This document shows positions 28,863-63,300 of a stretch of DNA of 64,000 nucleotides, piece by piece. The notes beneath the pieces were generated by a model that worked only from the letters and a program-made list of their open reading frames with translations, did no database searches and was not told where the DNA came from. The position numbers were made by a program, and so were the translations under genes. Source of the stretch: Cycas panzhihuaensis (taxonomy: Eukaryota > Plantae > Cycadophyta); the NCBI GenBank assembly GCA_023213395.1, contig CM041465.1:78747741-78811740 (forward strand), written 5' to 3'. Position 1 is the first letter of the stretch, and every line of letters starts with the position of its first letter.

Positions 28863-31288
28863 TGTATGGGCATTAGGCCACATGATACCAAATGTGGTTG
28901 TGCAAGAATTAGATGTTGAACAACAAGAAGTATCGCTTGCAGCCATGTCAGGAATCCAAAGACTCAATACAATAAAAATTTTTACATTCCTAAGAAAAGA
29001 GGGTGATAGCACTCATCAACCCAAGTAGCACCCATAATTTCATTGACATACGAGTTGCCAAAAGAGCTGCACTATGAATAGAGAACACAAAAGATTTTAA
29101 GATTTCCATCCCAAGAGGGTAGTTAATAATGTGCAAAGGAGAAATAAAATACCAATGACTCTAGATCGATAACTACTTACTATGCATTTCCAATTGTTGG
29201 ATTTGACATAGTTTTGGGATTCAAAGGATTAATCACACTTAGAACATATACCCTAAACCACAACAAAAACTTCATCAGGTCTAGAATGGACAGACAAAGA
29301 TATCAGCTAGCGGGCATTAATGCACCAAAAAATTTTGTCACCTCCATAGAAAAAAATGAACAAAATACTCTGAAAAGGAAATGTTAGATTCATCGTCAGA
29401 TTATTTGCAATTCATTTAGAAGATACACGTGACCAAGTACCTCCAAACTAAAAACAAGTAGACCAAATCTTAGATAACTATCAAGGAGTATTCTAGGAAC
29501 AACCAAGATCTATACCACCCATAGGAAGTATGGAACATATAATCAAATCATAACTTAGAACAAGACCAATTATACATAGACCATATCAATACAAATATAA
29601 ACAAAAGATTGAAATAGAAAGACTCGCACAAGAATTTTTGGACATAGTAGTCACACCAAGTAAAAGTCCTCATGGAACACTAATAGTACTTGCACGTAAC
29701 AAGGATGGTTCATTCAGATTATGTGAAGATTATTACAGTCTAAACAAGGTAATGTTGAAGAATAAATATCCTATTTCCAATATGGATGATATCACAGATG
29801 AATTACACACGACAAAATACTTCACCAAGATCGACCTCTGCTTCGAATACTACCAAATCCCTATTAGACAACAAGATACAAAAAAAAAAAAAAAAAAAAC
29901 ATAACACATTAAGGGCTATACTAGTTAAAGTCATGACCTTCGAGTTAACCAATGCCCTGGCAACATTCCAAGCTAACATGAATCACATATTTGCCTCCTA
30001 TCTCAAGCTATTCATCATGGTATTTTTTGATGATATACTAATCTACACTAAAACATGGTAGGAATACTTATGTCACCTCCAGAAGGTCTTACAAATCTTG
30101 AGAGACACCTACTTTTTGTGAAAAGGTTGAAATGCTAGTTTGGGAGGTAGGCATTAGAATACCTTGGACACATTATATTAGAAAAAGAAATCCAAATAGA
30201 TCTAGGAAGGATTCAAGCAATACTAGATTGGCCCATTCTTAAAAATGTTTCCAAACTATGTGGATTCCTTGATCTCACATGATACTGCAAGAAATTTTCT
30301 GAAAGGATATGCTATGATCACAGGCCCATTAATAGATCTTACCAAAAAGTATACCTTCAAATGGAATGAAGAAGTGAATCAAACCTTCAAGAACCTCAAC
30401 ATAGCGGTCAACACCACCCCAGTCTTAGCTTTATTAGACTTCTCCCAAATATTCATAGTAGAATGTGATGCTTTAGGAATGGGGATTGATGCAATTTTAC
30501 TCCAAAATATCCATCCAATATCCAATGAGAACAATAAACTCAACCATTGGGAAAAGCCAAAAGCACCTATGATAAAGAAATGTTAACCATCCTTTATTTC
30601 CTAGCTAAATGGAGGCAATATTTGTTGGGAACAAAATTTATATTACACACAAGCTACCATAGCCTAAAATACTTCCTCTTACAACCTAACCTATCTAAAG
30701 AACAATAGAAATGGGTTGGCAAGATACAAGACTATAATTTTCAAATCTCCTATAAAAAGGAAAAAGAAAATGTAGTAGTAAATGCATTATCCCAAAAATA
30801 TGAAAAACCTAACTATTCAACAATAACCATCCCACAACTAATTGGTAACTACACAAAGAATATACCACAAACTCAACTACACAAGCCAAAATAGACCAAT
30901 GTATCAACAAAACGATGACACCATAATGGACTATGAAGGGAAACATCCTACCTTATAATAGAAGAATTTACTTGCCCCAAAATTCATACCTTGAAGAAAT
31001 CATACTCAAGGAACACCATCAAGCTCCGCTCATTGGTCACTTAGGATTTGCCAAAACATATAAAAGGACAAAAGCATCATTCTATTAGGAAGGAATGAAG
31101 ATAACGATAAGGAAATTCATTTTTGAATGTGACACTTACCAGAGACAAAAGGCATAAAATATAAAGAGCCATAGACTCTTGCAACCTCTTAATAGACTTG
31201 ACTAAAACTAGGAAAAAATATCAATGGAGTTTACCACAAGACTTCCCAAGTCAGAAGCAAAGGATGCTCTATTTATGGTTGTAGATCT

Positions 31289-33276
31289 ATCCTCCACCAT
31301 ATGAGGTTATTATGTTTATCCCACATGCATAAGTCTAAGAGATGGGTAGCCTTAATAGCCCATATATATGTATGTAATGTATAAGTTGGATCATGATGTA
31401 TTTTGTAATCTTATGTTAATTGAATGTTCTTTGGAACTTCATCTCTTTCTTTATCATTTATCTATCATTTTCTATTTCTATTTCTCTATGTTGAATGGTA
31501 ACAGGAATAGGTTCACTACAAGTGGTATCAGAGCGCCCAGGTTGAGAGAGGTGTTTTTGTTCGGTATTAAAGCAGTGATTTGGGAGGTGCCATAACATTG
31601 AAATTTCTGAAAAGTAATGGCGAAATTGAGACAAAATAGCTCGTTCTATAAAATTTGAGTGGTCGCACTACAGATTTTGGGGTGAAAGTGCGAAAATTGC
31701 AGCAAAATTAATTTCGGCCTGCGTTTTTTCCGTCGCCGTATTTTTGGGACAGATCTGCAACCTCAACTTCAAAGAGCCATAACTTTAGCTACAGGTATCC
31801 AAATGACCTCAAATTTTTTTTGATTCTGTGCGTTTTCAAATTTAATTTCCAATGGAAGTGGTTTGAGGTTGATCAGAATTCGGAGTGAAAAGTTATTAGC
31901 AGTTTATCAGAAGGTACTATTACAGTCTCTAGAAACCCTAATTGTGAAATTCTTAAAAGGGGCCATAACTTTTGATTGAGATGTCGGAATTGACTTTCGT
32001 ACGAACTGTTGGAATCGCGTTTCAGAGGCCATCATTTTCATCCATATTTCATGTATTTTTGAGCTATATTTTTTTTCAGAAATAAGTTTTTGGGAATTTA
32101 AGGATTTCATATTATACTTTTCTTAGTCATAAAGCCATTACTCTCGAGGCCCAATATATATTTTTGTAACAAAATTAGGGGATAACAGGCTATAGACACC
32201 CCTAATCTCTTCTATATCCATATTATCATGGATACAACAAGGCCTATACCGCGCATCTTTAATGCAGATGGGACTCTTTCTGTAAGTGATTGGATTGATG
32301 ATATAGAGGCATATTTAAAATCACTTGATGATGACTACATGAACAATAAAGAGATGACTAAAGTAGCATCATTGTATCTGCAAGGAGAAGCTTACCTTTG
32401 GTTTCAAGAGTGGTATAACACACATAATACATTTAATTCATTTTATTTCTAAAATTAGATATTCAGATTAAATACCATGCTTCTTGGTGGAAAAAATGCA
32501 AAATCTTGAGAAAGACAAACAAGAAGCACGGAAAATACTTGAGAAGTATAATCGTAGAATGGGACAAGGAATTCTCCCCACTCCACAAAGTCAAGAACAA
32601 AAGAAAGATGATGAGAAAGAAAAGAAATGTCAAGAGCAAGTAATGTTGTTTGCCACCCCATACCACCAGTGACACCTAAGGACAAGGGAGAAAAGACATC
32701 ACAAATAGTTAAAAGACAAACTAAAGTGGAACCATATCGGCATCCACATTATCAAGAGGCCCAACGCAACAAAACTTATCAAGCAAGGCACTCATCAACT
32801 ACAAACACCGTGCAAGCACATTATTCGAGTTTAAGGTTTCAACATTATAGATATCCGAGTATATCGAGGATGTTGTGGTGTATCAAAATCAACTTGGGAT
32901 GGATAGATCCCCATTCCATGCGCAACTTTTCTAACGACCTTCGCAGAGCTATCGATTGGATATTAATAATGTGAGATGGTCACATGCATCATTAAATCAA
33001 GATGCTTCGAGGGCGAAGCATTTTAGGGGGGAGGGCATGTTATGATCCTCCACCATATGAGGTTATTATGTTTATCCCACATGCATAAGTCTAAGAGATG
33101 GGTAGCCTTAATAGCCCATATATATGTATGTAATGTATAAGTTGGATCATGATGTATTTTGTAATCTTATGTTAATTGAATGTTCTTTGGAACTTCATCT
33201 CTTTCTTTATCATTTATCTATCATTTTCTATTTCTATTTCTCTATGTTGAATGGTAACAGGAATAGGTTCACTACA
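31289..33276 (+). mobile_element. Element E: ~2-kb non-autonomous LTR element (TRIM/TR-GAG-like), very recent
   Basis: LTRs 31289-31520 and 33038-33276 are identical over their shared 232 bp (the 5' copy lacks the first 7 nt, tgttatg). Perfect Met-tRNA PBS tggtatcagagc at 31523-31534; PPT aggggggaggg at 33025-33035; no pol. Confidence 0.95.
32228..32672 (+). pseudogene. Frameshifted Gypsy-type gag remnant in E
   Basis: DWIDDIEAYL...VASLYLQGEAYLWF resembles the retrotransposon gag capsid N-terminus; continues in another frame with GILPTP (32484-32672). Confidence 0.7.
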
Positions 33277-36200
33277 CAACTACACAAGCCAAAATAGACC
33301 AATGTATCAACAAAACGATGACACCATAATGGACTATGAAGGGAAACATCCTACCTTATAATAGAAGAATTTACTTGCCCCAAAATTCATACCTTGAAGA
33401 AATCATACTCAAGGAACACCATCAAGCTCCGCTCATTGGTCACTTAGGATTTGCCAAAACATATAAAAGGACAAAAGCATCATTCTATTAGGAAGGAATG
33501 AAGATAACCATAAGGAAATTCATTTTTGAATGTGACACTTACCAGAGACAAAAGGCATAAAATATAAAGAGCCATAGACTCTTGCAACCTCTTAATAGAC
33601 TTGACTAAAACTAGGAAAAAATATCAATGGAGTTTACCACAAGACTTCCCAAGTCAGAAGCAAAGGATGCTCTATTTATGGTTGTAGATCTATTAATAAA
33701 ACATGTCCATTTCATTCCCATACAAACTTCCTTCAAAGCACCCTAGATTGCAGAAGTATTCATGAAGAAGATTCATTGACTATAGAGATTTCCCAAGAAA
33801 ATAGTTAGTGATTTTGACCCAAAATTCACAAGCCATTTTTGGAATGATTTATTCAAACTTGCAGGCACCAAACTCACTATGAGTATAAACTAAGGTAGTC
33901 AATAAATGTCAAGAGACTTATTTAAGGTGCTACATAGGTGACAAGTAGTCTAAATGGGTAAGTTGGATCCACCTGGCAGACTATTGGCACAACACAAACT
34001 ACCATTCCACAATGAAGATGTAACCCTTTATAGCACCATGAATATCAACCACCATCACCTATAGACTAAATCTAGAGAACAATTAAAATCCTAGCATCAC
34101 AAAACTTGATCCTACAATCTAACAGAATTTGAAAAGAACTTAAATATAATTATGACATTGCCATTAACAAGATGAAACAATAGACTAATTTAAAATGAAT
34201 AGACAAACAATTTGAGGTGGGAGAATGGGTCTATGTGTGACTCCAACCATACAAACAAGAATCTCTCAGGCAAGCAAGTAAATACAAATTAGCGCCTTGC
34301 TTCTATGGTCCATACCAAATACAACAAAAAATACAAGTAGTAGCATATGCCTTGAACCTCGCACAAGGTAGTAGAATTCATAGACTTCTTCCATGTCTCC
34401 TGCCTTAAGAAAAAAGTAGAATTTCACATAGGACCAACAACAAAACTATTGGTAACTAATGAAGAAGGTAAACTAGTAGTTAAATTTAAAGTGATCTTAG
34501 ACATCCTCCAGAAAAAAACTTTGCTTTAAAGAAGTCATTAAATACCTATCAAGTGGAATAACCTTTTAGAGCAAGAAGCAACATGGGAAACATAACAGTT
34601 TGTCCAATAACATTTTTCTCTACCAATGCTTTGAGGGCAAAGTGTCTTTTGAGGGGTGGGACTTATTGTAGACCTTGTCCTAGCAAAAGAAAAAACACTG
34701 ACTTCATATAGTGTCGGTCGACCTAATCAAAACCTAAATTTCATTATTAATAAACCCAATTTTGGCCAACTTCTATTATAACTAGTTTTCGGCAAAGATA
34801 CCACTTATTTTGGATAACTTAACCTTAGTAATCACACACTATAGACATAGGTTTTCCCAAGAGATTTGGGCATTATAGGTTCTAGAATCTTGGTGGCCCT
34901 TTCAGGGAGCAGGTTCATCTTATCTTGGCTTTCATAATTGTTGTTTTCTATTATCACTTTACGTAAAGATTGATAGTGATTAATTCAATTTTCTAACCAT
35001 TTTTTAGGAGCATTTATTTCACTGTAATTTTCCTTTAAAGATATATATTTTTAGCTTGAAGAACTCTCTTTCATAAGTGGAATTGCATTATATCAAGATT
35101 GCCTTAAAACAAGGGATAATCTATAGGAAACCCTAGCCCTAGGGTCACTGTAGAATGCATCAATACAAGATTCTCAACATGTGCCGCATCAAATATTACT
35201 AGCTTTAGATGAAAGGAATGTGTGTTTATCCCTAGTTTAACAATATATACTTGCCCTAGAACAATCAAGAAACAAGTTCACGTAGTGAGAATGCAACAAG
35301 CTTTTCTTATTGTAGGGGTTAAAATCATACATAGTTTTAAAATAAATAACTACAACTTTGAGAAATATATAGCTAGTTTGAAGTTTGTTTAGTCCTATGG
35401 GATACATTGTACCTACAACAACTTCATACACATGTGGCCCACAATACACACACAAATGCCATACTCAGCATATTAACATGCCATTGCCAATACAACCCTC
35501 CATCAATTTCAAAAATCACCCAAAGGAACTGCTCTAAAGTCATAAACTTATTTATATGTTGTAGAAAATAACTACTAGGTGTTGCAGTAGTACCTCCTAA
35601 CTATTTTATCTACAAAGTAACCACCAATAGTTGCAATGGTGAGCACCAAATTCTCTAGTTTGCCTTTTGTTACTTTGCGAAGCTACAATAATTTCCAAAG
35701 CTCATGTATTATATGCAAAATTAGGCCTAACATCCTTATAACCTTCACAAAAAGGGGAGTGTCCCTATCTCGAACACAAAATTTATAAAAAGACATATAC
35801 ATTATCAAATTTACAACTTTTACACATTTTCCATTAAATTTTTTCCACTTACCCCTTCTCCCTTCATGCAACTCTCAACATCATAGTAGTTGCACCCTCA
35901 TGCAATGAATTTAGTATCACGGGATGGGCTTCCACATGTATGGACTACTTGTCACCTACCATTGTAATGTCCTACTGTGCTTCTATCCACTAGTTGTTCA
36001 TCCTTGCCTCAAAGATGGTTTCGTTGCGAACACCCTTGGAAGTACTTAGTTGTATTTCTCTGACACTAGTTTCTAAATTCCAACATGAAATCACATCGAG
36101 GTCATGCTCCTTATAAAATCTTATCTTAACCTTAATCTTCTGCAACACTGTAGATTTTTTACGTTAACTTCAATGTCTAATCCTCAAGTTCTCCTCGTAT

Positions 36201-45552: not shown

Positions 45553-47269
45553 CTTAACTTTGTATTGATCATGCTATTTCTAGCATTCCTTGTTGGAGTG
45601 ACTATCAATCTTGTGTAGGTGCAATACTTGGATTTCCCCTTCACTATCTCTGAAGGATCTATTGCATCTATTTTCTTTCTCTAATTGAATGGCTACTTTG
45701 GTGGTCATTGTGATTGTTGTTGATGTGGAGTGTATTAGTGGATTTGGATCTAGGATGCTTGGGAATGGTTAGGGACATTTCCAAGAATAGCTTTGAGATG
45801 TCATCTAGCAAGAGAAGAGTGCAAATCAATGAAAATACAATGAAGGATGATTCTTGAATAATTTTGGGATGCATGGGATGATTGCAAGTCACGAAACATG
45901 CTCTCGAGGGATAGTTTTCTTCAAGCATAGGAACCGTTTTGGGATACTTTTAAAAATTGTGAAATAGTTTTGGAATAATGAATGCTTCATGGAATAGTTT
46001 TGCATTGAAAATTTTGGAGTTGAATTGTACAACCATACCAACATATAGGCATACGTAATGACACTTGCATATCATTAATTAGGGTTTTATGTTATGAAGA
46101 GTCAAAATCTATGTTGTAAAGTTGTACCCTTCTAAGTTTTTGGCTATGTCATTTCTCTTGTTGATTGAATGATGAAAACCAAACATTAAAAGGTGATGTA
46201 ACATTCTACTGAGCATATTTAATGTTGATTAATAAAAGATACAAGTTATGAGAAAAATCTTGTGCATCTTATGTGATTAATATTTAGTCATTTAAGTTGA
46301 GATTGAATATGTTGCATATGTGGCAAATGTTGCAAAATTGCCATATATGTTGTAATTTGTATTGGGATCAAATCCTAATCAGGTGCACCTGGAACAGTGG
46401 AAAACATGTTAATTTGTGTTTGACAAGTTGAGGATCATGCAAGGCAAGGTCCAACATGCGAAAAGAATGGATAGGAGTGTGGAAAAATTTAGTGATAGGT
46501 CAAAAAGAGGCTCTCAGGGAACACATAATAGTATGCATTCCAAAGAGGAATGCATATAGGAACGTATGTAAAATGCAACAACAGTCAAACCTGAATTCAT
46601 CCTAGATCTGATAACATCATCCTCACACATACATTTGTATAGTTGCGTAGATATCATAAAAAGTAATTAATGAGTTTTTAGGGTAACCATAATGAAAAGA
46701 TGCTTTGCTATGGATTGGAATGGTTGTGACCATAGGTCACAATGATTACCAAGAGACATGTAAAATGGGTATAAATTGGTCATTTTCCACCATTTTGGTG
46801 TCAGATCCAAGTCAATGAGTCATGTGATATGTTCTCAAGGGCGAGAGTTGAGTTGAATCATCTAGTATCATAGACTGATATGGTCATATTTCCAATGATG
46901 TGAAGACATTGTATAAGTGATCTTTGCTTAATGAAATTAAAGTTACATGGAAAATATTGTGCAATGTTATAATGTGTTTCCTTTGAGGAGCATGCTATTA
47001 TTACTATGAGAATGATATGACATTGTGATGATGGTTTATGATATGATTGTGATGTTACAAGGATATTATGAATATGTGAATGCATTTATGAGTCAATGTG
47101 TATGGTTGTGAGCATGAAAAGTGGCATTGTGTTGAGAAAACTCTTGGGAAGGCTGCATGAAAGGGATCCTTGACTATAGTAAAATCAACATTCATTATGT
47201 TGCCTAAGTCCACTTATGGGGGGAAAGAAGCTAGACTTTTTCACCTTACAAACCAATGTCCAAAGACCA

Positions 47270-50200
47270 AGGAACCCTGGTTGTCCTCATGATGGTAGGT
47301 TGTAACTAAGCCTTTGATAGCCAAGGGACCTTTCAATGCCATTAAAGTGGCCTTCGAAGGTGATAAATCCACTGAAAAAACCTTCACCTAATGTAATGAT
47401 GGAGTCAACCAGGAAAAGGGCAAAAAGATGGGTAAATAAGTGAAAATTAAGGGGTAAGAGAGTAAATTCTTTAAGGAATGACAAGACCAAGGGGAGGTTT
47501 GTCGAGGAGTTTGAGGCAAGTGAACCACAACCACCCATTTAGCAAAATGAGGATGGTAAAGGACTAACTTCGGACCCAATAGAAATTGAATTACTTAGCC
47601 CCAAAATTGCATCCATAGCTCCGACATTATTGGAAGTAAAAGAAGGAAGAAAATTTAGAGGAACAAGTAGTGACTCTGAGAAACCTAAATCTAATGCAAC
47701 ACTAGAGGAAGTTGCATGACCAAAAGTATAAGTAATCCCACCTTCAATTTCACAAGGGGGAAGTATAGAACCAAGTGTTTCAAAAATGGCAGACTCGATG
47801 GGAGTTTGGGACATTGATCTTTAATATTATGACTGATGCAAGCAAACATGCATACTTATTTCAAAATTTGGTGGATAAGAAAAAATAGCAAATGAAGCAG
47901 AGATTCGAGCAAGATTTGCCTACTCATTACGGGGTGTACCCTTAGCATCATACAAGCAAGTGGATTCATCCAAGACATGGGCAAACATAAAAAAGGAATT
48001 TAAGAAGAGATTTCAAAAGTTCAAAAGTAATGAAGCAATATAACTATCACTCAGGGAAATCAGATAAAGATTGAGGTAGTCGATGTTGACATATATAAGT
48101 AGAATGACATTCATAGTTGTAAACATGTAGAATGGGGAGAAAAGTATAGACTATAACTTGAGAAATTACTTTGTTAATAGATTAAACTCAAAATTGAGGG
48201 CGGATATGGCAACACACCCCCTTCAGTACTTTAAGCATGCATAAGAATTGGCATTAGATTTTAAGGGGATAGACACTGAGATGGCAAGCCACAATCCCTT
48301 ATTATTATTGAGATTACAAGAGGAAATCCAAGAACTTAAGAGTCAAAATGTAAATAAACCTTACCATCAAGCCACAAGAGCAGAGGAGACTTTAGAGGTG
48401 GAAGCCCTCAAAAAGGAGCTAACCAGATTAAAGATAGGTACACATAAGCCTCAAGTGGAAGAAGAAGAAATGAGTAAGAAACAAAGAAATAGAGAAATTT
48501 ATATACAGAAGTGGTGTCACATTTGTGATGAGAACATGCATTCCACAAAGAAATGCAACCTAAATAGGAGAAACAATCGAGTCAAAAACCAAAGCAAATG
48601 GTGTCATATTTGTGATATAGATAATCTCAATGGATGTGGAAAATGCCAAAGAGGAAGAGGAAGAGGTGTTGAATCCACAAGAATGATGTATACCACTTGC
48701 ACAACACCAAAAGGTTCTAAAAGGAAGCCACCGTTGCGGTGCTATTTGGTTTGTTTAGAATGTGGCTTCTGGAAATCAAAGTGCCTTGTGGCCAAGGCCC
48801 ATGCAGAGTGCCTATTCATGTGTAACAATTATGGGCCTAACGCTCACCCCAAAAAAGACTACAAAGGAAAAGAAAAACTAATCTTATGTCTATGGTGATC
48901 GAATCCCTAAAGAATGTGAGTCTACAAGCTAGAAGCATAAATAAGGGGAAAGAAAATATGGAAGAGGAGTATTTGAATCCTAAAGTAGAAGCCAGTAAAT
49001 GTGCAGCAGCAAAAGAGCTTTGGAAGATGTTGTTAGAGAAGTAGATAAGAGTTTACCTATGGCAAAAGCAAAGACAAAACAAGTATGTACAAGAAGGAAT
49101 AAGGCTAAAGAATGAGTAGCAAAACCTAAGGAGGTAAAACTAGTGATAAACCAACCGCCCACATTAAATGCAAAGAAACAATTTCGGGGAGATATTCCAA
49201 GAGTTTTGGTGGTAATGGAAAATTTGGGGAAACAATTAAAATTGACTACTCCATTAGAGCTATTGAATGGATAAAAGCTACAGTTCTGGAACCTAAGGAT
49301 ATGGTGAGAAGCTTAAACAAAATTATACCCTCATGTAACCTAGATCCTATGGTGATAATAAGCATTTTGGGTGGAACATTTTGAAATGTAATCATTGATG
49401 GGGGCCAATAGTAAATGTGTTGCCAACATTTACTTGGAAGAAGTTAGGGAGCCCAAAACCTGAACCTACCAATTATTCATTAAAGTTGGATAATGATCTC
49501 TTGGTTAAGCCAGTGGGGAAACTACTAGATGTGAAAGTGAACATCGATGGCATTATAATCCCCATGGATTTCACTATTGTAGAAATGGTCAAGAAAGTGC
49601 TAACCTACCTAGCTTTGTTAGGACAACTATGGTTGTACAAAATGAAGTGTTTACAAAGTTGCAGAGATGTGACCCTCACCTTATCAAATGGAGGAAATGA
49701 AATAGTGTTGTCAATGCTAAGCAAAGGGAAATACACTCTGGAAGCCATTCACAATAGCACATCAAACACAACAATTGCGTGTGAAGAGACTGAATCCTCC
49801 TTCGATGAGGCTAATTTATATTGAACAATGGAAGAGATGGAAACAATGAGCAACCCCCATGATAGCAAGCTCAATTATTATGGGGAATTGCAACTAGAAA
49901 TTTCTTCAAATGAAGAAGGTGCTAAGAATCTTGTAAATGGATGCAGGAGTCATACGAGGTAGACCCCGCTCGTTCCACTATAACTTACTTTCTATTTCTC
50001 CTATGATTGACATGGATGATAATAAAACAAATAACTTGGAGGATACTAGTGTCATGTGCAATTCTAGCATTCATGATAATAGTGATAACTTAGGAACCAA
50101 CATAGCAAATGGATGTTCTCAAATGAATGTTGAATTAGCAAATGCTTATTTTTACAAGAAAATGAAGGGGAGAAACAAATAAAGGTAGAAATAATGGAAT

Positions 50201-50520
50201 CATCTCCCTTATCTTTTGAACCCCTTAACCCTAATCCCATTTCCAATTCCATTCCTAACCCTAGACTTAACCTTAATCCTATCCTTGGGCTCAAAATGAA
50301 AGGTTTGTCCAACCTTTCCCCAAACCCTAACCTCCCTTCTACTTCAAATGTAAAACTTAAAGTAGAATTTCCCTCCCAATCCTTATCCTATCTTGGGGAA
50401 ATTAGCTCTAGTTCTTCCCCATCTTCTCTTAGGGTGCATCCACCTAGTGATTATAATTCATCTAAAGAAGACACTCACAAAGGGTTTTCACCCACCTTAA
50501 GGGAAAAAACTATAGAAAAA
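47270..50520 (+). mobile_element. Element K: decayed relative of element I (gag with multiple Zn knuckles, protease, Pro/Asn linker), truncated by J
   Basis: LLLRLQEEIQELK, WCHICDENMHSTKKC, WKKLGSPKPEP, PNLPSTS...SSSL.VH.PS are collinear with I. Left boundary uncertain. Confidence 0.85.
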
Positions 50521-52266
50521 TTGGCACATGCACAATGTCATCACATGATCACATAGTAAGCAAATACAGGTAACAAAATGACACTGCACATGTACACCAG
50601 TTTGACAGGTGGAAAAACCTTTCTAGGGAAGAAAACCCACCTCCTAAAGTTGTAGTTTTATTAAGAAAATTTGAGAAACAGAAAACCATTTACATAATCC
50701 ACCTAACCACCAAACTAGCCTTGTAAAAGGCATTTAGACAGCCCTCCTAGATTCTCGGAACCATCTCCTTGAATCTAGGAGAAGAATTTATATTAAGAAA
50801 GGTTCGTTGAAATGCAGTTCCACATTTCAACCACCTTCCACATAAGATTAAATAATAAACACTAAAGTTAAGCATTATAATAACTTAAATACAAATTTAG
50901 ACATGTGACTTAAATATAAACTTTAAAAAGAACATAAAAGTTACATTACATTAATATTCCTAACATCCCCATTTAATGTAAACTTTTATGCTATAGAAAA
51001 AGAAGGTCTTCATCACGGTGATCCCCCTTTGATGGAGACGTCTTTTATCTGTAACAGATCTCAGAGATTTAGAAACTTTAATTCAGTTAAAGACTTCGTA
51101 AGTATGTCAGCAATCTGTAGATCTGTTGGACAATAAGACAAAGAAACAAGATTATCAGTAACTAAATTATGAATAAAATGCTGATGTAATTCAATATGTT
51201 TAGTCCTAGAATGTGAAACTGGATTTGTAGCTGTTGACTCAGGTGTTCCCACTGCACTTGTGGGAACAGTGCACTTGTCAAGGTTACACAGGCTATAGTC
51301 TAGTTACGATATGGTCAACATGGTTATTCACATACATTCCACAGATTATATCACAATAGTACACAGCAGCATACAAATCAACACATATTCAGCATTTCAT
51401 CCTTATAACACAGAGAATACACAGTTTTCCACATAACTCTTCTTTCCATTAAGCAACAAGTTCAATTACACAGAGGGCTGGAATGCATTCCTGTGCATTC
51501 CAGCAGCATACACTCTTCTGTTACATGCGTACCTAGGTGGTACTTATCAATAAACACTGTTTCAATCGGCTATCATACGTGCTGGCATCTGTACCATTGC
51601 GTACCCTGAATATTCGACTCTCGCCCTTTGAGAGTATACAATAGGATTGAATCACTCAGCTCTCACACTGGAATGGTCCTTGTGTGCTTCCTTAAATGTG
51701 CCTCTTCGCATTTTTGGTCAAGGGTTATGACCGCTCATCATAACCGCATTCTTGATCAAACGTATTTTTCATTAGTCATTGGTTATCCCATAACCAGTGC
51801 CTTAAGCATGTCCGACGTAAAATGCGACGTGCAGCGACTCCCCTAGGCTTCCACCGTCCTGCATCGTCATGCGCATCGCCTGCCTATTTACGTTACGCTG
51901 GTACGTATGCGTATTGCGCACTGCTCTGTGCACGCACCTATCATACGCACCCATAATGCTAGTTTTTCCACTGCCGCCTGTGTACCTCCGCACGGTCCTG
52001 CACTGCACATCTAGGGTTATCTAGCCTACCTTTGGTCTTCCAACAGCCATATGATCAATTTCTACCCCAACATCTATCCTGTGTCAATAAGATGGGTTTG
52101 AGCATCCTTGCTCAACAAAATTCCAAAAATTTTTCAAAATTTTGGGGTATTCCTCCCCGCCTCGCCTCAAGGCGCCTGCTGCCTCTGTCCTACTAGGATT
52201 TCTTCATTAATCTGTGTTAAGGTAGCAATGATAGCATCCTTTTCCTTAGTTTTATCTTGAAGGGCG

Positions 52267-53237
52267 CTATCTCGCTTTATACCCTTCCTCCATTTCTTGA
52301 ATAAGCTGAATTATAGGTCCTGATTTATTATGTGGTGTGGGAGGTGCTGAGGCTTCACCTGCTTCCATTGACGGAGGGAAGTCTTCCCATTCTTCCTGGA
52401 GGCCTCGCTTCTTCTTCCTCCTCCCCTGATTCCTCTTCACCTTTCTTCCGTTTACCTCTTTTGTGGACAGCCTGTTTTGTTCGATGTGGAATAGGTGTTC
52501 CTGGTGTTTTCTGACCGGTGAGTACCTTTTGCATTTGTTTTGAACCCTTCTTTTGCCTCTCGGGTTGTTAATCGAATCCGGAATTCCGCCCACTATTTAA
52601 TGATAGGTTCCCGCGGAGAAATGGTGGTTCTTGTTAGCTGTACTCCTGGACATTGATAAAGCAAGATAGCCAATAATAAGGAGGGATGTCGAAAGGGATG
52701 TGTCCTGATCTCCTTGAGTTGGTGCCTCATATTTTCTGCCAAGAATTCGAACCAATTCAGTTTCTCTCCTTCCCGAATTTTTAATAACACTGGCATCATA
52801 CCTCCTAGAATGTATGTATATTTCCATTTGGACAAAAATCGGGAATTTATAACTTTTGCTATCAATTGGAGTCTGATATCAATGATATCTGCTACACGAA
52901 TTCCACCAGACATTATCTGGGTATTTGCTTGACATAATTCTCTTAACCACATTTCACGGTCAACCTCTGACCTCTTGGTACCTAGGGGAATTTCCCCTTC
53001 ATTTGGGAGTTTTGTTATGGTGTGAATTATTCCTGCATCCATCTTGACCTTCCTGCTATCTTCCTTCAGTGCTAGCAGGATCTGGTCCATGAGTTCTGGG
53101 TCATAATACATAGGATTGCAATAAATGTAGTCTCCCCATCCTGCTTGTTTTACCCTGGTCTGAAATTGAGCTGGTAAAGCTTGCAATTCCAACTTAAGCT
53201 TTGGTATAAACGCTTCTTGGCATCCTGTTGTCCTCAT
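52267..53237 (-). CDS. Extra 3' ORF of element I in env-like position (214 aa plus 108 aa after a frameshift), function unknown
   Basis: Same sense as gag, between the repeat array and the 3' LTR. ITKLPNEGE and LNWFEFLAENMRHQL...F..PSLL resemble accessory ORFs of plant LTR elements; basic/coiled tail. Confidence 0.7.
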
Positions 53238-53429
53238 TTTGGCTGTGGAATTCCAGAGATAGCTGAAAATAACCTAAGAGTGCAAATCGGAACCCTACGT
53301 ACGTACCTTTTGGGTATGCTTGCCGTTTTCTTGAAATTCTGTGCCGAGATGCATACTGGAGTCACTTTTTCGTCTTATAGGGTCGTACGATTGCTTGGTA
53401 GAAAATTTAGAGTCGATTCGTTCGTCGTC

Positions 53430-53850
53430 TTCCGCTGCATACTTCACAGGAATGCTCGCAGGTACGTAATGTTTTGTCTTATTCACTGTTTTGTCTTATA
53501 CGTGCTTTTTGGTATGTATAATGTTATTCGCTTCCACTGTGCATACTTGATTGCATACTTTTTAGGTACGTATAATGTAACTGGGCACTTAGGCTTACTT
53601 TCCACTGTGCGTACCTGACTACATACTTTTCAGGTACGTATAATGTAATTGGGTAACTTAAATCTTCTTTTCACCGTATGACTGATCGCTGCACTTTTCA
53701 GGTACGTATAATGTAGTTTTGATTCACTTTTTTGGACTGTGCGTACTGGACTATATTTCCCTAGTACGTATAGTGTAATTTTTGAAATTTGATCATTTTT
53801 TAAACTATGCGTACCTGGTAACATACCTTTTTGGTACGTAAAATGTATTT
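53430..53850. repeat. Array of ~6-7 degenerate 50-70 bp units sharing ggtacgtataatgta, most forming a hairpin
   Basis: Motif at 53461, 53511, 53565, 53633, 53701, ~53763, 53833. Example stem cgtacctga (53610-53618) / tcaggtacg (53630-53638). Confidence 0.85.
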
Positions 53851-54074
53851 TGCTTGTATGCTTTTGAATTTTCCTCTGAATTTTTCAGTTTATGATGCTA
53901 TTACCTATGTATGTGATGAGTTACGGTTGTTTATTTTTTTCCCATTTTTTTTTCTCTTTTCTGTATCCATACCGAACTGGATCATGTTTCGGTATCAAGG
54001 CAATCTATTTTGCCTCAACTTCATGCAACACAATATAGTATAACCAGTTGATCCGGCTGGTAAATTGCTCCACC

Positions 54075-55076
54075 CTAGTTGATATAGGGTTTCAGTTTAC
54101 TACCCTTGACCATTTCAGGTAGTAGCTGGTTTGATAGTTTCTTCAGTTGGATAGTGCCATTCTGGTACACCTTCTCAATCATATATGGGCCTTTCCAATG
54201 CATCTTCAATTCTCCTTGGGTTGTTTGGGATTTGTTGTCGAATCGCCATACTCGATCACCCTTCTTGAAATACGATGTCTTGTCGTGGCGGTCGTGCCTT
54301 ATCCTTTGTCGCCTTTTCCTTGGTGTGGTATGCTTTGTTAGTTTCTTCTTATGATCCCTTAATTGATCTTGGTTTATTATTCCTTCTTCCAACCAACGTT
54401 CTCTACAATGTATCAAATGGGAAATTCCACATAGTGGTTCTTCATAAAAGGGCTTCACATAATTTCCAACGTATTCTCCATGATTTCTATCTTCTGGAGT
54501 GGCAACTTTGTTTCCTAGACCGGAATCTCTAGGGATACTCTCAGCAGGTTCCTTTCCTTCTTCCTCAAATTTGGCATCGATGGTTGAAAAGGATCTTCCG
54601 CTGGGTAGGTGTACCTCTAAAGAAGATGAGGAAGGTTTGTTACTTCCTTCCTTGGGCTGGGATGGGGGTGGGAAAGGGCAATCTACCTCAAGACCCACAC
54701 TAGAGGTAGAGGGAAGGTTAGGGTTAGAGGGGGTTGGGGTATTGGGAGGTGAATTAGGGTAAGGTTTTGGGTTAAAAGGGGGATTTGGGTTCGGGTCTAG
54801 GTTTTTAATGTTATTATTAACACTCGTATAATCAACAAATTTAGATTTAATATCGACATCCTCAGTTACATTCCGAGAAAGCAGGTTACACCTATAGGAT
54901 GAGGGGTTGACTTCATATGCATCTTGTAGCCAGTAATCCACAAATCTCATCCCGTTTTCGTCGTCCAAAGAGTTGTATATTTCTCCAAAGTACGTTGGTT
55001 CTGCTTCTTGGCGGTTGATCAATTTGGTGGGCTCTTCAGCAGTTTTCTTCATCGAGGGAAGATGCTGTTGTTTCAC
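54075..55076 (-). CDS. Pro/Ser-rich linker fused to integrase C-terminal GPY/F domain (no RT, RNase H or integrase core)
   Basis: Ends FKKGDRVW...LKMHWKGPYMIEKVYQNGTIQL...VKGSKLKPY, typical of the Athila/Tat integrase tail. No YxDD, HHCC or DDE motifs upstream. Confidence 0.82.
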   Translation of the reverse strand: MKQQHLPSMKKTAEEPTKLINRQEAEPTYFGEIYNSLDDENGMRFVDYWLQDAYEVNPSSYRCNLLSRNVTEDVDIKSKFVDYTSVNNNIKNLDPNPNPPFNPKPYPNSPPNTPTPSNPNLPSTSSVGLEVDCPFPPPSQPKEGSNKPSSSSLEVHLPSGRSFSTIDAKFEEEGKEPAESIPRDSGLGNKVATPEDRNHGEYVGNYVKPFYEEPLCGISHLIHCRERWLEEGIINQDQLRDHKKKLTKHTTPRKRRQRIRHDRHDKTSYFKKGDRVWRFDNKSQTTQGELKMHWKGPYMIEKVYQNGTIQLKKLSNQLLPEMVKGSKLKPYIN

Positions 55077-55863
55077 TTACGACAGTCGTACTCGATCCCT
55101 CGTCTGGTATCATTTCAATGGAATTTCTTCCCAGCATCGGTAATACTACTTTGTTCCCATTATCTGACAAGGTGAAAGTCACATTCTTCCAATTTTGGAG
55201 GCATTGGGTCTTGTATAGCCAAGGCCTCCCCAATAATCTTTGGATAGGGTATTGTCCCTTTTACATTTCTACGATCGTAAAGTCAATCTTTACGATAATT
55301 CCTGCCACATCCACCTTGATGTCGGCTAATCTTCCCATAGGTTGCACTAATAATTCGTTAGCCAATTTCAACAAATATGTTGCTGCTTCCAACTTTGGGC
55401 TTCCCAGTTTTCGCCATGTCGAAGCTGGTAATACGTTGACGGTCGCGCCTCCATCAACAATCACTTTTGGGAATGTTTCTCCCAGTACCATCATTGTTAC
55501 CATAGGATCCATATCGAATGATGGCATTATTTTCTTTAAACTCTTTGTAATTCCGCGTTGTAGTACTCCTCCTTTAATCCAATCAATGACTTGGCATAGG
55601 GGGATGGTCAATTGTAGCTGTTTGACCAAATTCTCCATCAACAACAGCATTCTCGGAATGTCTTTCACTGGTAACCCTTTAAATAGTTCTTCTATTTGCA
55701 CCATCTGCGGCTGCACCTTTGGCTCTTCTGGTATGTTCTCTTTTTCTTTCTGCTTATTTTTCCGTACGTATACGTATTTGGTTTCTGGTTTTCCCATTGG
55801 TAATGTATTTTCTTCCTGAGCTAAGCCATCCAACACTTGTTTTGCTTGTTTAAACCGATCCAT
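55036..55863 (-). CDS. Aspartic protease region of element I (disrupted)
   Basis: VIVDGGATVNVL active-site motif; GRPWL closing motif. Confidence 0.88.
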
Positions 55864-55914
55864 TTCTGTTTGCGGATTCGGATATACTCTGTTTTGTTTC
55901 TCCTTCTGTTTATT

Positions 55915-57378
55915 CTAGAGTTTTACGTTTTTAGTTTCTGGTATAATCGTCATTAGGTTGGAGGCTTTGGCCTTCCCTTTACAATCCTCTATCTTATGCT
56001 CACTTGGGCCGCAGTTGTTACACACGAACAGTTTCTGTTCGTATTCCCGTTTAGTTGGGCATTCGGACTTCCAGTGCCCAAATTGCAAACAGATGAGGCA
56101 TCTACCCATTGGCGGTTTCTTTCTCGAGGGCTCTTGTGTACCCCTCATTGTGTAAACATTTCGAGGTGGGTTGCCTCCCCTTCCCCTACCTCGTCCTTTG
56201 TAGGCTTTCCCTCTAGAATTATAGAAGCAATCCTTAATCATATGCATATCTACATCGCATATGTGGCACCATTTGTCCTGTTGGTGCAACGCACTATTTT
56301 TTGGATTCAGTTCGCATTCTTTAGTTGTATGTGAATTTTCTTCATAGATATGGCACCATTTGGTTACCCTCCCGGTATGGTCTTTCTTTTTCGTCGTTTC
56401 TTCATCTCTACTATTTCTGATTTTTAGCCTGGCCACTTCCTTTCCTAAGGCTTCCAATTCTGATTCCTCTTCTGCTACTCCCACCTGACAGAAGGGTCGA
56501 TTATACTGATTTTGCTTGAGTTCCCTAATCTCCTCTTGCAATTTTAATAGTAGGGAGCTATGTCCTCCTGCCTGTGCATACATCTCCATTTCAAAATCCA
56601 ATGCTAAATCTTGGGCATTTTTAAATGATTTTAATGGATGGGCATGCATCATGGCTCTCAGTTTTTCATTCAATCCTCTCACAAAATAGTTCTTCAAGTT
56701 GTGGTCAGTTACCGTTTTATTAATCATACTGTCCACAATGATTTTCATTCTGCTAATATAAGTTAGCACTGATTCTCCCGGCCTTTGTTTAATTTCCCTC
56801 AAGGCGATTTCCAGCTTTCGTTACTCTGAAACTTCAAATCTTTCTTCGAAGGATTTCTTGATCTTTGCCCATGAATCATTCTTGTTTATTTCTTTGTACC
56901 ATGCCAATGGTACTCCCCTCAGTGTACAGGCAAATCCGGCTTTTATCTCATCCTCGTCTATAATCTTTTTCACATCAATCAGATTCTGAAAGAGGCATAC
57001 GTGTTCTGCTGCATCCGAAGTGTCGTTGAAAATCAACTTTCCAAAGTCTCTGTAATCATCCATCTTGGGGGATTGCAACGGTGTCCCACCTGGTGGTGAT
57101 TCTTCCCTTCTCCCCTCCTTTGGGGATGCACTTGGAGTGCCTACTGCTGTATTATCCTTCCCAAATAACGGATTCTTAAATGGAGTTTTGATATGTATAG
57201 GTTGTACTACACCTGGTACTTGTATGGTTAATGGTGTCACTGTAATATATGATTGATCAGATCCCTTTTCTGATGAATCCTCAAAAAGCTGTCTTGTAAG
57301 CTTATTTTCCCAATATGCCGAGGGACCTTCCTCCGCCTTCTTCTCGCTGTCACTTAGGTCCTTCGGACTATCCTCCAC
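55915..57378 (-). CDS. gag of element I (one frameshift near 56810) with four CCHC-type zinc knuckles
   Basis: FACTLRG.PLAWY and IKQRPGESV capsid motifs; CHIYEENSHTTKEC (one Cys mutated), CHICDVDMHMIKDC, CLICLQFGHWKSEC, CNNCGPSEHKIEDC. Confidence 0.88.
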
Positions 57379-60300
57379 AGGTATACTTTCCTCTTTTAAG
57401 GTTTCTTAATGCTTTTCATCCACCTTTGGTTTTCCTTCAAATTCTGGGCTAAACAAATCATCTTTGATTGGGGCTGGTGTTAATACCATACGTTCACCAT
57501 TAGTTCCCTCTTCTTGTTCTTGAGGTGTCTGGGCTCCACTTGCCTCAGATCCTTCAATGGACTGTCCCTTGGTCTCGTTGTTCTATGAACTTAATCTCCT
57601 CGCCCTTCTCAGTTTTGATTCCTTCGACCATCATAATGCCCTTTGTCTGTTGGTTTCCTTCCCTTTGGGTGAAGTATCCTTTTATGGCTCTTCTGACCTT
57701 AAAGGCCTCTTAGGTGGCATTCAGAGGTCCCCTGGCTGCCGGTGGCTTAGTTACAGCCTGCCATCACGACGGCAGTCAGGGTCCTTTGCCCTTTACACAT
57801 TCCTTTCCTTGAATCTCCTGGGCCCTGTCCCTCCTCAATGGACGTAGGCAACGGAACCAATGTTGACTTAGGTGTTCCCACTGCACTTGTCAAGGTTACA
57901 CATGCTATAGTCTAGTTAGGATACAGTCAACATGGTTATTCACATACATTCCACAGATTATTCAATGTCTCCACAGAATTATATCACAATAGTACACAGC
58001 AGCACAGAAATCAACGCATATTCAGCATTTCATCCTTATAAGACAGAGAATACACAGTTTTCCACGTAACTCTTCTTTCCATTAAGCAATAAGTTCAATT
58101 ACACACAGGGTTGGAATACATTCTTGTACATTCCAGTAGCATACACTCTTCTGTTACATGCGTACTCAGGTGGTACTTATCAATAAACACTGCTTCAATT
58201 GGCTGTCATACGTGCTGGCATCCGTACCATTGCGTACCTTGAATATTCGGCTTTCACCCTTTGAGAGTATACAATAGGATTGAATCACTCGGCTCTCACA
58301 CTGGAATGGTCCTTGCGCGCTTCCTTAAATGTGCCTCTTCGTACATTTTGGTTGAAGGGTTATGGTATGCTATATAACCGTACCTTCGATCAAACGTACC
58401 TTTTCATTAGTTATTGGTTACACCTTAACCAATGCCTTAATCATGTTAAATGCGTCCATACGTCGTCTGGCGACTCCCAGCTTCCACCGTCCCAGTCTTG
58501 TCATGCGTGCATTCGCCTATTTCCGTTACGCCGGTGATGCGTATACGTATTGCGTGCATTCGGTATGCACCTATCATCGTGCTGCAATCTTTGGTTTTCC
58601 ACTGCTACTCGTGTGTATCTGCATGCAGTGCGGACTGCACATCTATCTAGGGTTATCTAGCCTATCTCTGATCTTCCAACAACCATATGATCAATTTATG
58701 CCCCAACAGTAGCTATAGCAATTACACCTTGATTATCAACTTTAAGTTCAATGGAAGAGTTTAGAGATAGACCAATTTTATTTAGTAAAGATTTGAGCCA
58801 AAGTGCTTCTTTGCTGGCTTCAACAAGTGCACGATATTCAGCTTCAGTTGTTGATAAAGCTAGTGCCTGCATTTTCTTACTAGACCAAGTAATAGGTGAG
58901 AAATCTATAAAAAATACATAACTTGATGTAAATTTTCGATCATTTATATCACCTGCCCAATCTGAATTAGCATATTCAGTTAAAGTTAGAGGTTTATTGC
59001 AAAAATTATAAGTTAAACCATAAAAACAGTATGCTTTAGATATCGTAAGATACGTTTAGCAGCTTTCCAATGAGATTCATGTGGCTGGTGCATATAATGT
59101 GAACATAAAGCGACAGCATAGGAAATGTCAGGGCGGGTATGATTTAAATAAATAAGACTACCAATTAGTTGTCTATATAATGTAGGGTCACATAAGGGTG
59201 AGGAACAATCAGTAGATAGTTTGACTCCTGATTGTAACGGATTAGATACGGGTTTGGCATTTTCCATGTTAAACCGCTGAATTAAGTCTAAGATATATTT
59301 AGGTTGTGATATTGTTATTTTTAAATCATGTTGATAAATTTGTAAACGAAGAAAGTAATGTAGTAGACCTAAATCGGTCATTTTGAATTTGTTCATTAAA
59401 GTAGTTTTTAAATGATGAATACTATTAGTTGATGATCCAGTAATGATGATATCATCAACATACAAGATTAGAATAGTAATATTTTCATTTTCACGTTTAA
59501 AATAAAGATTTGGATCACTAATACATCTAGTGTATCCAATGTGAATTAAATAATTATCTACTTAAGTATACCAAGCTCGAGGAACTTGTTTTAAACCATA
59601 AACGGATTTCTTAAGTTTACAAACTAAATTAGGATTTTTAATAAAGCCAGGTGGTTGAGATATGTAGATCTCTTCTTTGAGATCACCGTTCAAGAAAGCA
59701 CTCTTGACATCCATTTGGTAGATTTCCCATCCAAATTTGGCTGCTAGAGCAATAATTGTTTTAATTGTGTTCATCTTTGCAACAGGGGCAAAGGTTTCAT
59801 TATAATCTATGCCATCTATTTGCGAAAATCCTTTGCAATAAGGTGAGCTTTATATTTTTCAACATTGCCTGTTGAGTTATATTTTGTTCTATAGACCTAT
59901 TACAGTCAACTATATTTTTCCCAGGTGGGAGAGGAACGAGATCCCAAGTTGAATTTTTAATTAAAGCATCAAATTTAGTTTGCATAGCGTCTTGCCATAC
60001 AGGATTGTTGCTAGTTTGTTTAAAGATTTTGGGATTGTTCTTGTCCATTATTTTAGCCATTAAGGCAAAGTTAGCATGTAATTTTTGGGCACGAGTTTGT
60101 CTGATATCTGAAGGATTACCTACATCAGATCTAGCATCAGCCAGTGTTTTCATTGCCCAAACAGGTTACTTGTTAGTAACTGTTTCTAAAGGTACATGTT
60201 GATTTGTTGAAGTAGTTTGAGAGGAGGAATCTATTTCATTAGATTCGGATAGAGTCCAATTTTGGACTTGAGTTGATAAGGATTCTATAACTTCCGGATC

Positions 60301-63300
60301 AGCTTGTTTATCAGAGGGGTCAACCAAATAAGTGTTGGTTAACAAATTTTCAACGGGAAGTTCTACATAAGTAGATGTTGAAGAAGATCCTTCTTCATCA
60401 AATATTACATCACACAAAATGGAAATTTGATGCATGACTAGATCCAGGAGTCTATAAGCTTTACTCTCTTCGCTGTATCCAACAAAGATGTATTTTTGAC
60501 TTTCTGGATCTAATTTTTTGCATTTTTCTTTAGGGATGTGTCCCCATGCAATACTGCAAAAGATTCGTAAATGATTGATAGATGGTTTTCTTCCAGACCA
60601 TTCTTGTTCTGGAGTAACGTTGTGCAGACTTTTGCTAGGTAAACGATTTAATAAATAGTTAGAGCAGTTAATTGCTTTTGCCCATAATTTAGATCTAGAT
60701 TCTTTGCATGTAATATGCAACGAATCATTTCAACAAGAGTACGGTTTTTGCGTTCAGCAACACCGTTTTGTTGAGGTGTGTATGCAACGGAATGCTGAAA
60801 CCGAATTCTATTTGATTTACAGAAAGAAGTGAATTTTCCACTTAAATATTCCTTTGCATTATCAGATCGAAAAATTTTGATTTTTGAATTTGATTGATTT
60901 TCAACTAGCATTTTGTATTCAACGAAAATGTCAAATACTTGACTACGTGTTTTAAACATGTAAACCCAACATTTTCTTGAATAGTCATCTATAAATGTAA
61001 CAAAATAACGAGAACCTAAGTATGATGTTACATGAAAAGGTCCACATATGTCAGAGTGAACAAGTTCAAGTGGAACTGTTGCTTTGAATTGAGTTTTATG
61101 TGGAAATGGGTCCATGTGTTGTTTACCTGTCACACAGGCTTCACAAACACCATAAACAGTGTTTAAGGGTGGAATACTATGAACCATTTTATGCTTGTTT
61201 AGATATTGCAGTTTGCCATAACTTGTATGGCCAAATCGTGCATGCAAAAGTTTGATGACTGAGTCAGATTTGGCAATAAAGGCACTAAAAGATTTTGTTT
61301 TGTTATTTTGTAGACTTGTTAGACTATAGAGACCTGTTTTATGATCAACAGGTCCTGAGGCAATACGTCTAAATTTGTTTAATGGTTCCTTAATGATAAA
61401 TTTATTTTTCCAGAATTCAACGACAACGTCTTTCTGGCAGATTTGATAGATAGAGAGTAGGTTTGGTAATAGACCAGGTACGTAGAAAACGTCTTTTATT
61501 GATCCATCCTTTAAGGTAACATCACCTGATCCTTTGACTTTAAGTTGGGTACCACTTCCAAAAGAAACCTCTTCTTCAGAGTTCGATTCAGATTGATAAG
61601 TGGTTAAATTTTTCTGGTGTCCTATCATGTGATAGGATGCACCAGAGTTAAGGATCCATTGTGGTGGTTGATTTGTAGGGGCAACAAACGCAGAAGTTGT
61701 TGCCGCTAAAGAATGATTATGAGTTTATCGATTTTGAGGTCGTGATGGAGAATGGGATTGAGGTCGATTTTGCAATCCCTTGGTAGCTTTCCATGCTTCC
61801 GAAGCTATTCTACTTCTGCAGACATCAATAATGTAGCATTTTTTATGACAATAGGCACAACTAGTGTTCTGAGAAGGAGTTACGTTGTTCCTATTATGAA
61901 ATGACTGGTTAGAAATATTCTGGTGTTTAGTTGGACCAGAATACTTAATATTGTTTTGAGAATTGAATTGTGAACCTCTATGAGGTTTCTGAAATTTTGG
62001 AGTATTATGAAAATTATTCTGTTGTTTGTTTTTAAATTGTGGCTTAGTTTTGGAAAACAAAGCCTGTGAAGGATCTTTTAATACGCTTGTTTGAATTAAC
62101 ATTGTTTGATGTTCAATCAGCTAGTTTGTCAACAGATTGAATGTTATAGGTGGGTCGCCAGCTTGCTGTCTGACATTTTTGTAGAGATTAAATTATTTTG
62201 GTAACTTGTTTACTGCAAGACATACGAATGTATCGTCGTCTCTAGCATGCGTGATTATTTTTTTAGTATCACCTTCTTTAGTTTTGCATTTGATACAGTT
62301 TCCTAGATCTTTATTAATTAATTGAATTTTACATAAAAAATCCTCAACATTAGAAAAATTATCAAAAGTAAGGTCATACAATTGTTGTTGTAGGACAGCC
62401 ACTTGATGTGTATCAACCTTATCATATTTTTCTTGCAAGGTTTTCCAGACAGTGGCCAAGTCATCTATTTCAGAAAACTGCCGACTAATTTTTGGTGAAA
62501 GTGAGTGTAATATGGTGCCTAAGGCTGCATCTGAGTTCATCAGATATACCATATAACTCTCTGTAGCATCTTCTTTTGGTTTTTTAAATTCACATGTCAT
62601 ATATCGCCATATCTTTTGCTGTTTGAGCTGATGGGATATGCGATTCCTCCAGTCGACATAGTTTGAGCCGGTTAACACTGGAATTGGAATGCAAGTGGTT
62701 GTCCTTGGCATTAATGCTATATTGGGAGTTATAAGGTTTGATTGAAGATTGAAGAATATGAAGATAGGTGAAAAAAATAATCACTTACTAAAAGCACTAA
62801 TCATTAGATTAATATTTTAACAGGCATAATTCAAGAAAGCATTGTAGTATGCATTACTTGCACTTAAAGAAAAAATCACATGTTTTCAGGCAGATAGTTT
62901 CTCTTGAATTGAACAAACAAACAACTTCTTAAAAAATTCCCTTAAGCAGTCCCTTTTTGAAAAAGGTTCCCCCTTAATTTAAGAAATAAACAATCCCCCT
63001 TAGGTGTTTAAGTTTGAAGTGATTAATTTTACAATAATTTTTAAGATATAAAACTGATTTGCAATAAAAAAGTTAATCATTTTTTATTAATTAAGTTTTA
63101 TGTTTGAAGAAATATAAATGTATTAAAAAACGGTACTCAGATAAGAACAGATACTATACTTTGATCTTGGTCAAAAAACCAAGAAAAAATATTAGTTTTG
63201 CCTAAGTTAATTAGGCTTTGTTAATAGTATATATATATGTATAACTTTTGAATAAATGTTTGATAGGTAATGTATACCTTATATATGACAAAGTAAGCTA

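Follow-up and report, generated by a model that had tools for sequence, protein, structure and literature searches.

What becomes of an integrase when the retrotransposon that encodes it loses both reverse transcriptase (RT) and the integrase core? The question is raised by element I, an Athila-type Ty3 retrotransposon of the cycad Cycas panzhihuaensis (assembly GCA_023213395.1, contig CM041465.1). It lies in a 64,000-nucleotide stretch, positions 78,747,741 to 78,811,740 of the forward strand, which we call the window and to which all coordinates below refer. We found that element I is a dead Athila copy encoding Gag, protease and the C-terminal tail of an integrase, and that it is likely a member of an amplified, semi-autonomous family using the enzymes of a complete Athila. 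That the RT-less state is shared by the whole family is highly probable. Why the tail was kept is treated below as a question of its own.

We examined first what is missing from element I. No open reading frame (ORF) of the element gives a Pfam match to RT, ribonuclease H (RNase H) or the integrase core (rve). A tblastn panel of 20 queries, most of them with RT, RNase H or integrase core, was also used. Apart from one row of the protein P0003, matches of its pol-bearing queries to element I all fell within the protease or the final ~115 codons. Positions 54425-55185 were reached only by two linker relatives, P0001 and P0006, and by that weak row of the repeat-containing P0003 (155 columns, E 0.009). 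As a positive control, the same panel detects Ty3 pol relics at three other places in the window. A local RT profile made from five sequences gave E 4.2 on element I and 3.3 on element K, an older relic nearby, compared with 3e-21 on a control relic. The absence of RT, RNase H and integrase core, claimed earlier from the letters alone, is thus solid, and with gag and protease present element I has the composition of a semi-autonomous Gag-protease element. The idea that the end of the linker is a relic of the RT N-terminus was rejected, as a profile including pre-RT sequence scored nothing on element I.

What is retained is the end of the integrase, the last ~100 residues of a 333-codon ORF, as the original prediction had stated. 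A profile of 63 integrase-end matches aligns with ORF residues 234-332 at an independent E-value (iE) of 1e-27. We take GPY/F to be the name of this region. A multiple alignment hinted that the tail might include the last part of the catalytic core, an idea that the profile alignment does not bear out, since its first aligned position is 96. Among the 59 matches with enough upstream sequence, 46 continue into the core end, whereas element I does not; the other 13 break before it, and several of these are named eukaryotic gene models, maybe spliced or mis-joined. The tail is at most 47% identical to any listed match except P0001, and two Pinus taeda proteins are among the matches.

An AlphaFold model of the tail (43-row alignment; mean predicted local distance difference test score, pLDDT, 86) contains a helix at residues 8-36 and a beta-barrel, so that the tail is predicted to consist of a long basic helix and an SH3-like barrel. 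The barrel resembles the integrase C-terminal domains (CTDs) of murine leukaemia virus (MLV), Rous sarcoma virus (RSV) and prototype foamy virus (PFV) about as well as it resembles Tudor/PWWP domains (Z 6.2-7.3). No structure comparison reached a Z of at least 8, and Foldseek returned no match at E 0.001. By this prediction, element I keeps a whole structural module. A sequence search of solved structures gave only weak rows, including the MLV integrase CTD (E 0.14) and Ty3 Gag-Pol (E 0.15) with the unrelated PsaD on top, and a single sequence as query found nothing there. The 28-residue helix has a net charge of +9 in both element I and P0001, against a median of 0 (standard deviation 2.3, maximum +7) in 65 other anchored proteins of 154 examined. 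As a separate observation, two predicted proteins, P0003 from axolotl (4,446 amino acids, aa) and P0004 from Pleurodeles (3,852 aa), each carry seven integrase-CTD-like stretches, with no other Pfam domain at E 0.01. They are possibly domesticated repeat-CTD proteins or gene-model artefacts.

The reading frames of element I show its decay. Its gag, which shares a frame with the protease, is interrupted by in-frame stops, and one stop falls within the protease at 55263; the gag-protease frame, which closes at 55038, has seven stops within 890 codons. The 333-codon ORF is stop-free at 54075-55076 (minus strand) as first reported, and it lies in a different frame. Element I is therefore frameshifted between protease and linker, near 55040-55050, and does not run from protease straight into linker as had been supposed. 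Seven stops and a frameshift make it a dead copy. The open 333-codon frame is by itself weak evidence, because at 3.5% decay such an ORF would stay free of new stops with a probability of ~0.27, and at 6.5% decay with one of 0.09.

We then asked whether the RT-less form is peculiar to this copy. A word-index protein search gave one match among 707 candidates, P0001, a 424-aa protein from a single Logan contig of 3,659 nt. In P0001 a single frame encodes the end of gag, the protease, the linker and the tail, without 117 residues of the Pro/Ser block of the linker. Its best-conserved segment relative to element I is the barrel, with 57 of 61 residues identical; the counts are 33 of 36 for the helix, 50 of 63 and 31 of 35 for the linker, and 124 of 147 for the gag end and protease. 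An exhaustive search of 1.84 billion protein representatives gave 370 matches; among the 150 listed, the only linker relatives are P0001 and P0006. The latter (Logan, 114 aa) covers the second half of the linker at 47% identity, stops just before the linker-tail junction and, judged by this divergence, appears to represent a third lineage with that part of the linker. The best match to the linker in the Atlas was just 0.77.

Assembled contigs of sequencing runs were consistent with P0001. Of 24 listed runs, 20 carry part of the stretch (11 coded organisms, 13 studies); none of these is recorded as RNA, though X15 may be. Contigs of six runs were aligned, four over 53900-56000 and four over 54078-54470, with two runs in both; contig depth is not taken as copy number. 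Over 53900-56000 each of the four runs gave 8,671-16,981 short contigs, and all 30 bins were covered. Three listed contigs, from runs X1, X11 and X15, bridge the linker-tail junction with at least 31 bases on each side. Together with P0001 they show that the RT-less form is common to independent copies, which supports the semi-autonomous borrower proposed in the original prediction. No indel in 54078-54470 reaches 25%. Of 14 indels at 5% or more in 53900-56000, 12 are listed; none falls in the 333-codon ORF, and five fall in the non-coding 53930-54003. Other copies depart from element I at 55046, where 18 and 27 contigs of two runs have loose ends. Scans of metagenomes for relatives gave 47 pattern matches, none confirmed by tblastn, and scans for the LTR-primer junction (LTR, long terminal repeat) gave no match.

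A more distant protein resembles this arrangement. P0138 (an ENA record, 260 aa, from one 2,350-nt contig) has a protease, a spacer of ~50 residues and an integrase tail, with no RT. Its junction lies at profile position 92, compared with 96 in element I and 99 in P0001. Its tail is 55-61% identical to three named or Athila-like matches and 32% identical to that of P0001, so by similarity it would be a distant, angiosperm-type Athila protein.

To ask whether the tail is under selection, we divided the variants of 54078-54470 that are listed as reaching 25%, 26 in all, into six private to element I and 20 shared. One of the six private variants is synonymous, as decay predicts. Among shared variants, 9/16 in the tail are synonymous compared with an expected fraction of 0.33 (p 0.044; p 0.016 when the row with a stop is left out), and so are 6/9 in the barrel (p 0.037). 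These values weakly suggest that the barrel is under constraint; there is no such sign for the linker. Several points count against constraint on the tail. None of the four shared variants at the linker end is synonymous, one shared variant is a stop, and p rises to 0.099 for the tail if codon 246 is dropped, and for the barrel to 0.075 if one near-private site is. In addition, contigs from autonomous relatives may have raised the synonymous excess.

Cumulatively, anatomy and precedent suggest the following course for the active copies. They would have made a single Gag-protease-linker-tail polyprotein, with the tail present once per Gag, and the element would have built and matured its own particle. 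RT, RNase H and integrase would have been supplied in trans by an autonomous Athila through a shared primer site and LTR ends. Such trans-mobilisation is argued from precedent only, as no autonomous partner was found. The tail itself is probably a remnant of a recurrent ~3-kb deletion of pol. Tentatively, it was an appendage of Gag with a role in binding nucleic acid or in nuclear targeting, which we favour because the helix is strongly basic and the SH3-like barrel weakly constrained.

A comparably tentative alternative keeps the same semi-autonomous family and regards the tail as passive, left behind by a deletion hotspot, or as sequence kept at the RNA or DNA level (for example as a signal for packaging or for the 3' ORF). 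A conserved recombination hotspot for a ~3-kb pol deletion is indeed proposed in the available text on Arabidopsis ATHILA (10.64898/2026.03.20.713144), and it would also account for the junction shared with P0138. The loss of significance of the synonymous excess in two of three sensitivity variants agrees with a passive tail, as does the possible contribution of autonomous relatives to that excess. By contrast, element I, P0001 and P0138 all have an in-frame junction, a whole folded module is kept, and the barrel is the segment best conserved between element I and P0001. Constraint on RNA would, moreover, not predict an excess at synonymous sites. A bolder extension of the appendage reading is doubtful: that RT-less Athila elements of distant plants repeatedly keep a useful CTD in frame, here turned into a basic appendage for nucleic-acid binding or nuclear targeting. 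If it were true, elements now classed as 'gag-protease-only' would in fact be Gag-protease-CTD elements and have a third functional protein.

The contigs and protein records also hold points that weigh against an RT-less state of the whole family. No listed contig spans the whole stretch, and all four runs aligned over 54078-54470 show a fall in contig depth at the junction. At 54370, nine contigs of X11 and 14 of X15 have loose ends on the upstream side. The same tail is thus also joined to different upstream sequence in some contigs, which may be a sibling's or a helper's, and contigs on the tail may include autonomous relatives. A shared PR-linker-tail junction (PR, protease), proposed earlier as a check, is supported by the single frame of P0001 and by the bridging contigs, and qualified by the other sequence at 54370. 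P0001 and P0138 are single records known as proteins, and the P0138 gene call may be spliced. The original prediction also called for an autonomous partner whose primer site and LTR ends match; none was found in searches that were themselves weak, and those for longer proteins gave one weak match in 4,117 candidates and none in 1,694.

These points bear on an improbable reading, in which deletion gave rise to element I and P0001 as minor derivatives and most members are autonomous, with the same linker followed by a full pol. Element K is compatible with it, the loose ends at 54370 show other upstream sequence on the tail, and the loose-end evidence consists of 24 listed rows of 2,633 (53900-56000) and 24 of 355 (54078-54470). 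However, no spot where many molecules begin or end is among those listed in either interval, and no protein joining the linker to RT was found among the 150 listed of 370 matches or in the longer-protein search. Furthermore, the linker exists in two lengths among RT-less sequences. The short form, in frame, lacks a net 351 nt at 54507-54868 (117 codons in the middle of the linker) and is carried by P0001 and by one contig of run X7 with a depth of 186. Two length variants imply that RT-less copies replicated. Least probable of all is a tail acting as decoy or brake, with free CTDs in mixed particles competing with the helper integrase to limit copy number: the single frame of gag and tail in P0001 would supply one tail per Gag, but several organisms appear to hold the family in highly amplified form and the helix charge is far diverged from that of ordinary integrase helices.

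A semi-autonomous family remains our preferred reading, and the ends of element I agree with an Athila origin. The original prediction called it intact-ended, and its LTRs, 5-bp target duplication and primer site are all present (Table 1). Both LTRs read TGTTG...CAACA on the element strand. The primer site was compared with the Athila tRNA-Asp/Asn motif in the available text of 10.64898/2026.03.20.713144. Paired TG...CA LTRs, a 5-bp duplication and a primer site place element I in Ty3/Gypsy, as does the order gag-protease-(gap)-integrase tail with integrase last; database matches to the tail carry RT, RNase H and rve upstream of the integrase end. The LTRs are unevenly diverged although the target duplication is perfect. 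Their Kimura two-parameter (K2P) distance is 0.129 overall, 0.073 in columns 1-520 and 0.22 in the remainder, which has many indels and transversions. The pattern points to gene conversion, or to recombination with another subfamily, and LTR dating of element I is unreliable as a result.

Table 1. Features of element I and element K in the window
Feature	Position	Strand	Basis
Element I, Athila-type Ty3 retrotransposon	51232-58708	minus	paired LTRs, target duplication, primer site
Left target-site duplication, 5 bp	51227-51231		same bases as 58709-58713
Right target-site duplication, 5 bp	58709-58713		same bases as 51227-51231
3' LTR, 841 bp	51232-52072	minus	aligns with 5' LTR
5' LTR, 848 bp	57861-58708	minus	aligns with 3' LTR
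Primer-binding site	57847-57859	minus	11/13 bases match the Athila tRNA-Asp/Asn motif
gag: capsid domain and several Cys/His knuckles	55700-57720	minus	Retrotrans_gag E 2e-4, zf-CCHC E 4e-4
Aspartic protease, D-G-G-A motif	55189-55500	minus	Pfam Asp_protease_2 E 7e-4 (below cut-off); local protease profile, which includes P0001, E 6e-36
Linker, ~255 codons, Pro/Ser/Asn-rich middle block	54381-55150	minus	P0001 and P0006 sole relatives among listed matches
Integrase C-terminal tail, ~100 aa, W-x-G-P-Y motif	54078-54380	minus	profile iE 1e-27
Short degenerate direct repeats in tail/3' ORF spacer	53532-53853		3 copies of 54 nt, family D11
Putative Athila-type 3' ORF	52593-53273	minus (element sense)	226 codons stop to stop, first ATG 53237
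Element K, old sister-family relic (putative): gag, protease, first two-thirds of linker	47190-50472	plus	tblastx collinearity

Element I also possesses a sense-strand 3' ORF that had been overlooked, and its frame runs on past the stop at 52595. Of 30 Atlas feature matches (0.92-0.93), 22 are to clusters with PF20167 Transposase_32 and four to a cluster in which 17% of members carry PF03078 ATHILA; there is no significant direct Pfam match. The protein P0113 has the same order, an integrase tail followed by Transposase_32. Membership of the Retand/Tat lineage was considered and rejected. That lineage is described, in the text available, with an antisense TRP28 ORF in a 2.9-6.6 kb region between pol and the 3' LTR (PMC11963269); the tail-to-LTR distance in element I is ~2.0 kb, and the only ORF of at least 150 codons there is on the sense strand.

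Can element K date the loss of RT? The original prediction took K for a much older copy of the same lineage, so that RT loss would predate both insertions. K is collinear with element I through leader, gag, protease and linker up to ORF residue 167. The shared linker holds for its Pro/Ser part (39% identity over 84 columns, E 4e-10), and the Pro/Ser linker appears old, as K shares it. With ~60% DNA identity and an LTR that is barely alignable (E 0.009), K appears to be a separate sister family and not a second copy. It ends 67 codons before the junction where the tail starts, and it gave no signal with the tail profile or the RT profile. Because K stops before the junction, showing neither the tail nor an absence of RT, it cannot date the loss, and it lends no support to the semi-autonomous borrower. 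Its linker leaves the loss undated as well, because there is no autonomous relative to tell whether the linker also precedes RT.

Around these two elements, element I interrupts a minus-strand Copia element within its RNase H region (~50500-51226 and 58714-62780), and no partner LTR for the Copia 3' end near 50500 was found in the 64-kb window. K was probably cut near 50500 by the 3' end of this Copia element, which hosted the later insertion of element I. Elsewhere in the window lie three decayed Ty3 pol relics, at 3989-5822 (minus), 17128-19066 (minus) and 29554-30864 (plus), which were considered as close kin of element I and are not close relatives. Two related Copia elements in opposite orientation (12606-15885, plus; 24262-28963, minus) are 72-81% identical. 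A tubulin C-terminal fragment at 8286-8741 (minus; Pfam E 3e-6) is probably a pseudogene piece. Blocks at 30871-31520 and 33045-33693 are 99.5-100% identical with their order rearranged, and reflect either a recent duplication or an assembly artefact. No tRNA genes were found in the window.

How does element I compare with known systems? The Gag-protease-only Athila class is already known and is among the commonest of plant retrotransposons, so the novelty that had been implied by contrast with other classes does not stand. The deletion in Arabidopsis ATHILA is reportedly defined by Wlodzimierz et al. (Nature, 2023). As described in the available text, Gag-protease-only ATHILA make up 934 of 2,322 elements in six Brassicaceae; they lack RT, RNase H and integrase through a ~3-kb deletion, are on average 3,102 bp shorter than autonomous elements, and the deletion is ascribed to a proposed recombination hotspot (10.64898/2026.03.20.713144). 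As far as that text goes, they resemble element I in keeping Gag and protease, an Asp/Asn-type primer site and a downstream Athila ORF, whereas element I is distant from them in host and sequence and has a long, Pro/Ser-rich linker. The 3.1-kb Arabidopsis deletion may well leave the same integrase tail.

Other plants offer further parallels, each as presented in the accessible parts of its source. In wheat and barley, RLG_Sabrina_SA and RLG_WHAM have an intact GAG-Pro ORF without RT or INT and are called 'semi-autonomous' (PMC9744471, PMC5738225); for wheat, GAG-Pro only is also given in PMC11302176. They are high-copy members of the Athila clade, with a tRNA-Asp primer site in common with the proposed helper Wilma or BAGY2 (PMC9744471, PMC5738225). 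Like element I they have gag and protease, no RT or INT and an Athila-type primer site; unlike it, they have a proposed helper, and no retained integrase tail is described for them there. In pol-less Arabidopsis Athila families, gag with or without the 3' ORF is under purifying selection, and the families persist for up to two million years (PMC2410132), but they are described with gag or gag and env only. Among TR-GAG and sugar beet non-autonomous families, 28 beet families have GAG/PROT only and 15 an extra partial pol domain (PMC13570524); those domains are described as partly decayed remnants, whereas the tail of element I is an in-frame folded module. Wheat Fatima subfamilies 1.4 and 1.5 keep their gag and protease ORFs (PMC6097303), and pine Gymny derivatives without internal regions are common (PMC2633040).

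In the available portions of these sources no Gag-protease-only element is described as having an in-frame integrase tail, and the figures or supplements of the ATHILA papers may already show the deletion ends. The less familiar trait of element I is its retained integrase tail, which may still be functional. Annotation tools label such elements 'gag-protease only', since the integrase core profile is absent. If a CTD is kept in frame under selection across lineages, the integrase end would have a non-catalytic job, and this would be a clue to how retrotransposon parasites compete for helper enzymes. The hundreds of annotated Brassicaceae and Triticeae copies to which element I is here compared could bear on the question of the tail.

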